In this document: in pieces, positions 47,597 through 55,587 of the stretch
Numbering within the stretch: position 1 is the stretch's first letter
Layout of the letters: each line of letters begins with the position of its first letter
Source of the DNA: Bacteroidota bacterium
Lineage (GTDB): Bacteria; Bacteroidota; Ignavibacteria; Tepidaquicellales; Tepidaquicellaceae
Length of the DNA: 55,993 nt
Reading direction: 5' to 3'
Assembly (NCBI GenBank): GCA_023429265.1
Contig: JAEYVS010000103.1
Location: 1 to 55,993, forward strand
Translations under genes and position numbers: made by a program
The notes under the pieces: generated by a model
The model's input: the letters and a program-made list of their open reading frames with translations, nothing else
Database searches by the model: none
What the model was told of the DNA's origin: nothing

Positions 47597-47848
47597 TCAT
47601 TTTACCAGTACCATCCTTTTGGTTTCGATGAAGTTTTCGGATTCGAGCTTATAGAAGTATACTCCGCTGGGAAGATTTATTCCGTTCCATTCATATTCGT
47701 AAGTGCCGGGATTTAATTTTTCATTAACTAGTGTTGCTACTTCCCGTCCAAGCATATCATACACCTTCAGCTTCGCGAGTGATTCTTTTGGGATGTCGAA
47801 TTTTATTTTTGTAGAGGGGTTGAATGGGTTTGGGTAGTTTTGGTGGAG
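47597..47848 (-). repeat. CTD-module repeat copy 1 (coding)
   Basis: About 250 bp that aligns without gaps to the copies at 49738, 51360, 52610 and 54676. Begins TCATTTTACCAGTACCATCC. Confidence 0.85.
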
Positions 47849-49741
47849 GTGAGGAGATGTTGGAGTTTCGAAAGAAATATTATTAATCCCTACATTTTGA
47901 TCTACATTAGTTAGAACTAATCCATTCAATCCAAACAACCATCCATCGCCATTATCTTTGAAATAATAATTTGAAAGTAGTCCCCCTGAATATTGCATCA
48001 TGCTATAATTTAAACCACCATCATTTGTTTTTCCCAAATCACTTCCTGTCCATAAGTACCCTTTATTAATATCAATAAAATGCATTTTTCTAAAGGAAGG
48101 TGGTCCTGAAAGATTGCTATTATATGATACCGAATTCCAACTAGAGCCTCCATTTGAGGATTTCAGAAACTCACCGTGATACCAGGTATATTGAGCGTGT
48201 GTGGTTGAACCCCAAAGATAAACAAAAATATTATTTTCATCATATGGAGTTATACTTGCAATTCTATAATCCCCATTATGAGAAGAATTAATATTAAGTT
48301 GATTCCAGCTTAAACCTCCATTTGTTGTTTTAAAAAATCTACAGTAATATGTTGCAATAAATCCCGTATTGGAGTTTAAAAAATGTATGTTAGTGATTTG
48401 ATAATTATTAAAAGTAGTATCCTTTTCCAGATTATGCATAATCCAGTTATCTCCGCCATTTGTAGTTTTTAAAACCTTCCCTCCCCAACCCGTGCCACCA
48501 ATATAACCTGTGTCACGGGATGGGAAATCCATACAATTAGAAACTACAACATTCGATGTATCCCAATTAGAACCTTTATCAGTAGATCTAAAAAACTTAT
48601 TGGATAATAAATAAACCGTGCTCTCCTCAAATGCTTCTATTCCTTTAATAGGACCCGGAGCAAGCAACTGAGTATTCTTTTGCCCGTAGTTGTCCATTCT
48701 ATACAAAATATTATTAGCATTTACATAGAATTCCCTCCCGTTGGGAGTTGCACCTGAATTAATTTTATAAGGGAATGGGTAGATTTCTTTATACCAATTG
48801 GTACCGCCATTAGTTGTTTTTACCAATGAGCCAGAACTTATACAGGCCCAACCGAGATTGTCATCCGAGAAATAGATGGATTTAATCTTACTGCCAATAA
48901 ATCCTTGCGAGGTCCAGTTGGCTCCCCCGGTTGTAGTTTTATAAATATTTCCAAGGGTACTCCCAAACCAACCGGTTAAGGAGTTTAAAAAGAAGACAGA
49001 TTTTACTGGTGTGGGAACGTTTGCCTGGATCCAGGAAATACCTCCGTCGGTTGTTCTCATTGATTTTGAACCATCACTAAAGAGCCAGCCATGCAAACCA
49101 TCAATAAATTTGATGTCCACAATACGACTTATGGTATTTAGATAGAGAGGATCCCAGTTTGATCCGCCATTGGTAGTTTTTAGAATATAATTAGAACTTT
49201 CACTTTGGTGATATGGTGTAGAAAAACCTTTTAAAGAGTCAAACATGTGAATTGAGGTTATCTTTGGCGACGGGATAGTAGTTTGTTTGGTCCATGTTGC
49301 TCCGTTTGTAGTTTTAATAATAAAATAATTATTGAGCTCAGAACCCACTATCCATCCGGTGAACCTATTTGTATACATTATATCTTCAAAATGTGTATTA
49401 GGAAAATATGTAAGCCCTCTGGTTCCCCAACTCTCTCCTCCATTTTGTGAATAATAGTAAGAAAGATTATTTACAGAATCATCTTGAATTGCATACCCAT
49501 ATGATTGATCAATATACATAGGCTCTTTTGGGTTAATAATACCCGGCATCCATACCCATTTTCCATTAAAATATTTATATGAAATTTCTTTTCCGTAAAT
49601 ATATCCTTTATCGGTATCAGTGAATGACATATTGACAAATTCAGAAGTCTTGAACAACAATTTAAAGTTATCAATGCCTTGGGCAAAAGCATTGCCTGCT
49701 GCTGCGATAAAAATAATAAATATAAATATCCTTTTCCTCAT
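47597..49741 (-). CDS. Ycf48/BNR-like beta-propeller repeat protein with T9SS C-terminal sorting domain (array gene 5)
   Basis: 714 aa. Signal peptide, many repeats of the type KTTNGG.NW / STDKGSNW / TTDGGISW, and CTD [18 protein letters not shown]...ETKRMVLVK. Confidence 0.75.
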   Translation of the reverse strand: [714 protein letters not shown]

Positions 49742-49989
49742 TTTACCAATACCATCCTTTTAGTTTCAATAAAGTTTTCAGATTCGAGCTTATAGAAATA
49801 TACTCCGCTTGGGAGGTTTACTCCGTTCCATTCGTATTCGTATGTGCCGGGATTTAATTTATCATTTACCAGCTCCGCCACTTCCCGTCCGAGCATATCA
49901 TAGATTTTCAATTTCACGAGTGATCCTTTTGGGATATCAAATTTTATTTTAGTGGAAGGGTTGAACGGGTTCGGGTAGTTTTGGGATAA
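49738..49989 (-). repeat. CTD-module repeat copy 2 (coding)
   Basis: Begins TCATTTTACCAATACCATCC and is colinear with the other four copies. Confidence 0.85.
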
Positions 49990-54679: not shown

Positions 54680-54927
54680 TTTATTAGTACCATCCTTTTG
54701 GTTTCAATATAATTCTCCGCTTCAATTTTGTAAAAATAAACCCCGCTAGGCAAACTTATTCCATTCCACTCATACTCATATACCCCCGCATTCAGCTTTT
54801 CATTCACCAGCTCCGCCACCTCCCGACCGAGGACATCATAGATCTTTAATTTCACGAGTGATCCTTTGGGGACGTCGAATTTTATTTTTGTGGAGGGATT
54901 GAATGGGTTTGGGTAGTTTTGGTGGAG
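54676..54927 (-). repeat. CTD-module repeat copy 5 (coding)
   Basis: Begins TCATTTTATTAGTACCATCC. It is the most diverged of the five copies but remains colinear. Confidence 0.8.
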
Positions 54928-55587
54928 AGAAAAGGAGATTGGAATTTCATTTGTTATTATATTCACATTTGTTAAACTGGTATCCCCATAAACAATTCCA
55001 TTAATTCTGCAACCTTTAAGATTTAGGCTTTCACTTGTAAAATTTGACTGCAAAAAGTATGAATAAGTGTATTTTGTATAACCAAACTTCTTAGTGAAAG
55101 TTAGATTTGTTGATGCCCCTCCCATTGGAATACTTATACTCCATCTAAAATTTTTCCGATATGTTTGTTCTCCAAACACCGTCATTGAAGATGTATCATT
55201 ACACCTGGATGATGAAGTTTTGCACATATTTCCATTTAGGTCATTAATTTTTGCTCTCAGACTATCTTCGAAGTTTTCAAAAGAATAAAACGAACAACTA
55301 CCCGTTGAATCATATGAATAAAGACTTCCGGTAGTAGAATCTAGTCTTAACCACTTATTATACAGTCCATGTGCAAAATAGTATGTTCTACCATTAATCA
55401 TAGTATCATTCAAGATATTCATAACAATAATGGAATCAATATTGATTGTTTGACCATTTGAACTGGTGCTATAATGGTAATCATACACAAAGATATTCCC
55501 AACCTGTAATGGAAAATAATCTGAATATTGAGAATATAAATTGGAATGAAACATTGCCAGGAATAAAAATAGTAGAATCTTTCTCAT
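54676..55587 (-). CDS. Secreted protein of unknown fold with T9SS C-terminal sorting domain (array gene 1)
   Basis: 303 aa. Signal peptide, a ~200-aa N-terminal region with no TTNGG or SBBP repeats, and the same CTD (…ETKRMVLIK). Confidence 0.7.
   Translation of the reverse strand: [303 protein letters not shown]

Follow-up and report, generated by a model that had tools for sequence, protein, structure and literature searches.

Type A cargo of the type IX secretion system (T9SS) of Bacteroidota is recognised by a signal peptide and a C-terminal domain (CTD) of ~80 residues that acts as the sorting signal (TIGR04183/PF18962). Concerted evolution by gene conversion is classically seen in bacteria in duplicate tuf genes and rRNA operons, and the 4-nt ATGA overlap, the commonest overlap of same-strand genes in prokaryotes, is associated with translational coupling. 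In Porphyromonas gingivalis, the gingipain and HagA genes (rgpA, kgp and hagA) contain adhesin modules that have been reshuffled by recombination, which has been read as antigenic variation (PMC5266723). This domain rearrangement is the nearest published analogue that we found for the locus described here, a chain of five neighbouring genes for T9SS cargo in a Bacteroidota bacterium (GTDB Ignavibacteria; Tepidaquicellales; Tepidaquicellaceae; assembly GCA_023429265.1). The window that we analysed is the whole stretch of 55,993 nt at positions 1-55,993 of contig JAEYVS010000103.1. Our searches of the literature on the T9SS with gene conversion or concerted evolution, and on TIGR04183 paralogs, found nothing on homogenisation of CTDs. 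We think it likely that the CTDs of this probable cargo operon went through an old phase of concerted evolution restricted to the sorting domain, followed by purifying selection.

The five genes lie on the minus strand at 47597-55587 and encode, in order of transcription, proteins of 303, 689, 417, 541 and 714 amino acids (aa), from which we name them W303, W689, W417, W541 and W714. Between a moxR-like gene and rplB they are the sole open reading frames (ORFs) of at least 100 aa. The earlier note on this DNA had described five same-strand genes of these positions and lengths, each with an MRK or MRQ start, a signal peptide and a terminal sorting domain, chained by ATGA overlaps and carrying cargo of several kinds, and this description was borne out throughout. 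Positions and lengths match the ORF listing exactly, and the four stop/start overlaps lie at 54676-54679, 52610-52613, 51360-51363 and 49738-49741. All five N-termini, judged by inspection and a Kyte-Doolittle window, open with an n-region of MRK or MRQ, continue in a hydrophobic core of 10 residues (Kyte-Doolittle 3.2-3.6) and close with (A/S)-x-(A/S), after which comes Q. All five C-termini score above the curated cut-offs, with 41.8-48.4 bits for TIGR04183 (cut-off 23; E-values 1.3e-12 for W303, 7.8e-11 for W689 and 2.9e-12 for W714) and 36-43 bits for PF18962 (cut-off 27), and in 5/5 genes the matches stop no more than 3 residues from the C-terminus. By all testable sequence criteria the five genes are T9SS type A cargo, and their products would be exported with a layout of Sec signal peptide, cargo domain and 83-residue CTD sorting signal.

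What distinguishes this chain from other type A cargo is the near-uniform CTD of neighbouring genes. A repeat search returned a single direct-repeat family of five copies, ~300 nt long, at the five 3' ends, and the CTD modules (83 codons, 249 nt per copy) align without gaps and are 84-96% identical in amino acids from pair to pair. The CTDs of three BNR-type genes at 25-31 kb in the window are, as had been claimed, far more diverged, sharing 46-59% of their amino acids with the five and 45-59% among themselves. The gapless alignment had also been noticed before, but the near-identity of the DNA that was read from it did not survive calculation: pairs of modules are 74-86% identical in nucleotides and 39-66% at third codon positions, the Nei-Gojobori proportion of synonymous differences (pS) is 0.55-0.98, and the longest exact run common to two copies is 13-35 nt. 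Synonymous divergence (dS) is ~1-2, up to saturated, so that the low divergence expected of recent conversion is missing. Because this dS accompanies a nonsynonymous divergence (dN) of only 0.02-0.09, the near-identity of the CTD proteins is mainly the work of purifying selection (dN/dS ~0.02-0.06). Since silent sites are nearly saturated, we rejected the idea that an overlapping gene or RNA hidden in the CTD keeps it conserved.

Purifying selection might be all there is to explain, with each CTD inherited vertically along with its own gene and the five kept alike by the constraint on a T9SS signal. The near-saturation of silent sites would suit this, as would codon choice, since the same codon is used at 0.56 of the residues shared by CTD pairs where codon usage predicts 0.43-0.50 (unrelated cargo, 0.38-0.53). 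CTDs of Ignavibacteria are also generally similar: in a CTD-only protein search, unrelated database proteins, mostly short fragments, were already 58-73% identical to the window CTD, a baseline for the family. The phylogeny of the genes points elsewhere. In L003, the contig of the closest relative found (RplB 92% identical), the equivalent slot between moxR and rplB contains three CTD-bearing genes, R420, R686 and R955. The cargo parts of W417 and R420 are 57-61% identical, varying with the alignment, are at most 35% identical to any other gene, and pair with 100% bootstrap support; P0002 is 61% identical to W417. The CTDs group instead by genome, with bootstraps of 95% for W689/W417/W541/W714, 93% for the L003 CTDs and 92% for those of the more distant relative L004, and the W417-R420 pairing has 0% support in the CTD tree. 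In 100% of bootstraps, whether from all, first plus second, or third positions, the W417 CTD is nearer to each of the W689, W541 and W714 CTDs than to that of R420, and it shares 93-96% of its amino acids with these paralogues vs 81% with R420. The W303 CTD is an outlier and resembles the L003 type. As W417 and R420 are orthologous at the same slot, the ancestral gene must already have carried a CTD, which has since been overwritten in at least one lineage. Together with the mere 46-59% identity of the other window CTDs and the undeniable recent copying in relatives described below (L003, L127 and L131), this makes purifying selection alone highly improbable, and we disfavour it.

Concerted evolution of the CTDs, as the earlier note had suggested, is therefore upheld by the conflict between CTD and cargo trees, but the recent or DNA-identical copying that went with the suggestion finds no support in the window, where dS is ~1-2. 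Between the window and L003, orthologue dS is 1.44 for rplB, 1.16 for rpsS, 1.24 for rpsC and 1.17 for the W417/R420 cargo. The dS of the CTD paralogues is of the same order, so homogenisation took place around or after the L003 split and not recently. We propose that neighbouring CTD modules were homogenised by non-reciprocal recombination, either gene conversion or unequal exchange, in tracts that would start at the CTD boundary and end at the stop codon and ATGA junction or a few bases past it. The events in the window would date back roughly to the divergence from the closest relative sampled. Strong purifying selection would have acted on the CTD afterwards, while silent sites drifted nearly to saturation.

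In kind, the process is classical concerted evolution, confined here to the sorting domain of otherwise unrelated neighbouring genes. As in duplicate tuf genes or rRNA operons, paralogues of one genome are closer than orthologues of different genomes, and there is a GC-biased signature; the unit, however, is an 83-codon domain with sharp borders in genes that are otherwise unrelated, and homogenisation has been episodic rather than continuous. The likeness to the gingipain and HagA genes lies in T9SS cargo genes with shared C-terminal modules, homologous exchange and conflicting domain trees. There, the unit is a CAD/DUF2436 adhesin module in dispersed genes, whereas here it is the sorting signal itself in adjacent, overlapping genes with unrelated cargo, and the copies in the window are of old date, their silent sites having diverged.

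Several points weigh against old concerted evolution of the CTDs. Gene-conversion tests, which the earlier note had proposed, are borderline in the window and clear only in a relative (L095, below): p is 0.052 in the PHI mosaic test, and in the Sawyer runs test W417-W714 is the one pair to reach significance (global p 0.015-0.08). Short shared blocks occur in the window CTDs at positions 188-215 (W303 and W689) and 114-115 (W303 and W541). The tree conflict is anchored by one clean pair of cargo orthologues, W417/R420, and the grouping of the L003 CTDs comes mostly from third positions; with first plus second positions, bootstrap support is only 47% for the split in the tree and 52% in the test on distances. 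Genome-specific codon bias, or the GC content of third codon positions (GC3) in the CTD, could inflate third-position similarity within a genome, and the GC3 excess described below has other possible causes, namely codon selection or a foreign origin of the module. No junction-spanning RNA was found among low-depth soil metagenome and metatranscriptome contigs. Finally, we know of no experimental demonstration of T9SS secretion in Ignavibacteria.

The moxR-rplB slot also records changes in gene content. In L003, R420 and R686 (both Ycf48-like) and R955 (SBBP) are joined by two ATGA overlaps and followed by a 790-aa gene without a CTD. An RplB-anchored scan of species-representative genomes gave best matches of 79% identity, L004 with three non-overlapping CTD genes in the slot and L005 with no CTD genes there. 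The contents of the slot differ among the window, L003 and L004, so gene number and order vary between lineages, and the structural variation for which the earlier note had looked to related genomes does exist. In L003 it includes a duplicated junction: nt 9924-10069 repeat nt 11183-11328 at ~98% identity, a 146-nt unit in which the 77-nt end of a CTD is followed by the ATGA and by 66 nt that encode signal peptide. As a result, an orphan 26-codon CTD tail stands ahead of the first gene, the R420 and R686 signal peptides are identical over 22 residues, and the R420 gene is bordered by 146-nt direct repeats. Relative to the window, the 417-type and 689-type genes have changed places.

Such features might instead reflect lineage-specific shuffling of modules, in which foreign or relocated cargo is joined to a local copy of CTD, junction and signal peptide, and CTD similarity simply records the age of the duplication. 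The swapped gene order would follow, and the direct repeats around the 420-aa gene are as expected from insertion of a cassette by one crossover. One CTD type is found on unrelated cargo folds, and signal peptides are related across genes (MRKVMI... in W689, R420 and R686; MRKVII... in R955). The orthology of W417 and R420, with an ancestral CTD later overwritten, speaks against shuffling as a sufficient account, and the block mosaics of L095 require exchanges inside the CTD. Shuffling also overlaps with the concerted evolution that we favour, as both amount to homologous exchange at the CTD and junction. As a separate explanation we regard it as unlikely.

Fresher exchange was seen in other chains. 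Scanning metagenomes for the motif of the junction revealed true chains at further loci, namely L093, L095 (also L103/L107), L106 and L109. In L095 (reverse strand, 2572-9912), at a site unrelated to moxR and rplB, six CTD genes of 665, 292, 428, 293, 326 and 442 aa with four ATGA overlaps are followed by a seventh ORF that extends off the locus; genes of this chain carry names in T (T293, T326, T428 and T665). A block mosaic is clear in five of its CTDs (PHI p<0.0002), T293 agreeing with T665 at positions 23-93 and with T326 at 135-223. In L127, two neighbours with unrelated cargo, a Ycf48-like gene of 689 aa and a W303-type gene of 309 aa, share 246 nt at 94% identity, ending at the stop. 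A stretch of 290 nt is shared at 90% in L131, between a W303-type gene and a BNR-like gene of 714 aa, and both copies have the same insertion. Across 39 CTDs from 10 loci, the median third-position identity is 0.52 for adjacent CTDs and 0.35 between loci (maximum 0.58). The chains in L093, L106 and L129 are not homogenised, and neighbouring CTDs there are unlike. Concerted evolution of CTDs recurs across Ignavibacteria.

A step in GC3 coincides exactly with the CTD boundary. GC3 is 0.45 in the window CTDs vs 0.26 in their cargo (Fisher p=3e-14) and 0.56 vs 0.29 in L003, and the difference remains after amino-acid matching. The step is absent in the three CTDs at 25-31 kb, which differ from their neighbours. 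Of the 39 CTDs, the ones that reach a third-position identity of 55% or more with another CTD of the same locus have a mean GC3 excess of +0.14, and the others 0.00 (Mann-Whitney p=7e-5; Spearman 0.46), although the copies are not independent data points. The excess fits GC-biased gene conversion without proving it. We put forward tentatively the possibility that in Ignavibacteria the CTD, the ATGA junction and the next signal peptide together form a portable module for homologous recombination, through which whole cargo domains may be moved, swapped, inserted or lost in frame in chained T9SS operons, with repeated GC-biased conversion leaving a footprint in GC3 that is limited to the sorting signal.

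The earlier note had added that the ~250-bp direct repeats could mediate deletion or expansion of cargo genes. Taken further, this reading would make the chain an active cassette system, in which near-identical repeats drive frequent conversion, deletion and expansion now. The different slot content and order in L003 and L004, the ~98% junction duplicate in L003 and the junction consensus retained past W714 are in keeping with this. The repeats in the window are not: at 74-86% identity and with exact runs of 13-35 nt they would be poor substrates today, and their dS is comparable to the divergence from L003. The arrangement is identical across three assemblies, the chain sequence being 100% identical over its whole length in the two others, which also excludes an assembly artefact; 8.5-kb assemblies of the locus end just beyond the chain. 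Joints seen in public reads were rejected as deletions because their 19-28-nt sides are CTD cross-matches, leaving no credible deletion. An inverted-repeat search for invertons at the locus found only weak AT-rich pairs. With no recombinase gene and no meaningful inverted repeats, the repeats being coding CTDs, an integron-like or other site-specific cassette and an inverton were likewise excluded. An actively rearranging system is thus very unlikely. One soil-metagenome contig of 249 nt (91-95% alike) joins the region upstream of W303 (55597-55663) to a CTD tail (51375-51438) with 66 unmatched letters between them; it may represent a variant arrangement in a related strain or a mere cross-match.

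Similar to other ATGA-overlap operons, the chain has ATGA at all four junctions and no internal terminator; different here is that the overlap sits in a repeated coding module, with K-stop overlapping M-R-K. The conserved block had been thought to run into the first codons of the next gene. It does enter that gene but reaches only its first two codons, as the repeat extends 4-5 nt beyond the stop (ATGA plus GGAA) to take in ATG, an AGG codon and the start of the codon that follows. Past the last gene, W714, the internal junction consensus ATGAGGAA is retained, and downstream of it lies only a 44-aa ORF without a signal peptide. This retention implies that the copied unit probably took in the junction. 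At the other end of the chain, the W303 start is preceded by a 10-nt tandem duplicate, AAATGAGAAA AAATGAGAAAG (55587-55600, minus strand), which resembles the internal junction consensus TAAAATGAGGAA.

The features of an operon are present: a single strand, stop/start overlaps and, in a terminator scan, no minus-strand terminator within the chain, with a hairpin directly 3' of W714 that has no coding-strand U-run. A sigma-70 promoter scan stayed at chance level (40 matches vs 40.4 expected). Each CTD tail contains a sigma-70-like TTGAAA or TCGAAA, an 18-nt spacer and TAAAAT, whose -10 element overlaps the next start codon. We considered TTGAAA-N18-TAAAAT as a promoter at every junction and rejected it, as conservation of the coding sequence in the CTD tail almost certainly accounts for it. 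Parts of W714, W541, W689 and W303 are matched by metatranscriptome contigs that are 92-99% alike. The five-gene chain is a probable operon, in which the ATGA overlaps most likely couple the translation of successive genes along the chain.

The cargo is as varied as had been claimed, with three Ycf48/BNR propellers, one SBBP propeller and one unrelated ~200-aa domain. PF14870 (PSII_BNR), the model for the seven-bladed propeller of Ycf48, matches W689 (4e-29), W417 (2.9e-13) and W714 (1.9e-20). W689 has 14 BNR-like motifs and in a PDB sequence search matches the Ycf48 structures 5ojr and 2xbg at 1e-12. All the same, scores of 46-110 bits for NF010237, the Ycf48 equivalog, against a cut-off of 326, together with the secretion tag, show that these propellers have the Ycf48 fold and are not Ycf48; we know of no phototrophs among Ignavibacteria. 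W541 matches NF047494 (SBBP, 6.2e-16) and weakly PF06739. The W303 cargo had no family match in Pfam and NCBIfam profile searches, and neither W303 nor W541 had a match in the PDB sequence search.

The W303 cargo belongs to a small family specific to Ignavibacteria: only six homologues were found among 5.8 billion proteins. Each is ~300 aa long and carries a CTD, and the family shows conserved motifs and three cysteines that are invariant. An AlphaFold2 (AF2) model of the domain is all-beta, with weak likeness to exported proteins of the YmcC/LolA-like kind (TMt ~0.4). Apart from the window gene, W303-type genes lie at 10001-10930 in L127, 9107-10060 in L131 and 10001-10909 in L129, and L095 contains related domains in three separate genes and one fusion, in T665. 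W303-type genes nearly always adjoin Ycf48/BNR-like T9SS cargo genes, which suggests that the W303-type domain and the Ycf48/BNR-like propeller form a functional pair.

The CTD itself was also viewed as a structure. In the AF2 model of W303 (pLDDT 71.8), residues 232-301 form 7 strands, and Foldseek matched the CTD model to the CTDs of mirolase (8qb1_A, TMt 0.60) and of RemA in a T9SS complex (8gl6_D, TMt 0.58); the W303 CTD is thus predicted to adopt the T9SS beta-sandwich fold. A Gln stands directly after every predicted cleavage site of the five genes (…YS/QY, …NS/QS, …FS/QS, …NS/QT and …FA/QG), and likewise in R420, R955, S398, T428 and T326. Known type A cargo is further resembled in the presence of a PorV/PorQ-family gene in the window, so that at least part of a T9SS is probably encoded; PorK/L/M/N, Sov and PorU were not seen within the window. 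At 17615-25011 (minus strand), the PorV/PorQ-family gene adjoins a gene for a 1113-aa protein (18707-22048, no Pfam/NCBIfam match) and a TonB-dependent receptor gene. The three BNR-type T9SS cargo genes, with their mutually unlike CTDs, stand just upstream of this cluster.

A last explanation would make the uniformity adaptive, with a single CTD type kept as an address tag since the products of the operon share a T9SS shuttle or attachment partner. The very low dN/dS of the CTD agrees with this, and so does the recurrence of the set of W303-type, Ycf48-like and SBBP genes in other chains, where the CTDs of a chain are uniform and of a type particular to it; beside the PorV/PorQ-family gene of the window stands another set of CTD genes. 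Against a tag, the locus encodes no receptor specificity towards subtypes of CTD, the neighbours in L093, L106 and L129 carry unlike CTDs, and recombination between interchangeable signals would be just as likely to produce homogeneity as a neutral side effect. We give a selected tag little credence beside the domain-restricted concerted evolution proposed above.

Named homologues of the window proteins in a protein search belong to Ignavibacteria/Ignavibacteriae, and fragments of the window at 92-99% identity are present in soil metagenomes and metatranscriptomes. The host is an uncultivated soil member of Ignavibacteria. Features of the window are listed in Table 1. The rplB gene is not preceded by rpsJ-rplC-rplD-rplW; a 412-nt gap (47185-47596), the T9SS cargo slot and moxR lie upstream instead. 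The order of rplB, cargo slot and moxR is retained in L003 (18804) and L004 (10001), which suggests that this clade has a split S10 ribosomal operon. Ribosomal protein L22 (45441-46067, minus strand) has 208 aa with a very acidic, lysine-rich C-terminal extension of ~95 residues, and the L003 protein is similar (211 aa). An Rfam scan of the window found three tRNAs and nothing else; a tRNA-Gln (anticodon ttg) lies at 40518-40589 (minus strand) within the block of ribosomal-protein genes. At 6284-9715 (plus strand), the window encodes a 1143-aa protein that carries a Tubulin_2 domain (PF13809, 1e-69) at its N-terminus and a SHOCT motif at its C-terminus.

Table 1. Features of the cargo chain and its surroundings in the 55,993-nt window.
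Feature	Position	Strand	Description or basis
MoxR-like AAA ATPase gene, 3' end	55709..55993	-	Upstream neighbour of cargo slot, conserved in L003 and L004
Intergenic region, 121 nt, moxR-like stop to W303 start	55588..55708	-	Presumed promoter region; promoter-like matches at chance level
W303, CTD-cargo gene, first in chain	54676..55587	-	ORF; signal peptide, ~200-aa Cys-containing all-beta cargo, CTD
CTD module of W303	54679..54927	-	Most divergent of the five, closest to L003 type; GC3 0.49 vs cargo 0.25
W689	52610..54679	-	Ycf48/BNR-like double beta-propeller, CTD
CTD module of W689	52613..52861	-	GC3 0.40 vs cargo 0.25
W417	51360..52613	-	Single Ycf48/BNR-like propeller, CTD; orthologue R420 in L003
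CTD module of W417	51363..51611	-	GC3 0.43 vs cargo 0.19
W541	49738..51363	-	SBBP-type beta-propeller, CTD
CTD module of W541	49741..49989	-	GC3 0.45 vs cargo 0.27
W714, last in chain	47597..49741	-	Ycf48/BNR-like double propeller, CTD
CTD module of W714	47600..47848	-	GC3 0.46 vs cargo 0.29
Vestigial junction after W714	47593..47600	-	ATGAGGAA, equal to internal junction consensus; repeat family ends at 47593
Sigma-70-like pairs	47599-47628, 49740-49769, 51362-51391, 52612-52641, 54678-54707	-	Promoter scan
rplB	46363..47184	-	Downstream neighbour of cargo slot past 412-nt gap; conserved in L003 and L004
PorV/PorQ-family outer-membrane protein gene	17615..18637	-	NF033709 164 bits vs cut-off 90

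Taken alone, the window records an ordinary, old event of concerted evolution that is dominated today by purifying selection. CTD trees are unsuited to inferring the history of cargo, and in chains of this kind pipelines for assembly and annotation should be prepared for repeats of the CTD module. The recurring company of the W303-type domain, Ycf48-like propellers and SBBP propellers points to a co-secreted function worth pursuing. Were the CTD, junction and signal peptide indeed a portable module, it would allow the secretome to diversify at the level of the operon without a dedicated recombinase. If the pattern is general, the T9SS sorting signal would be more than an address for export: it would also be a recombination handle that shapes the clustering and turnover of cargo genes in a large and mostly uncultured lineage.

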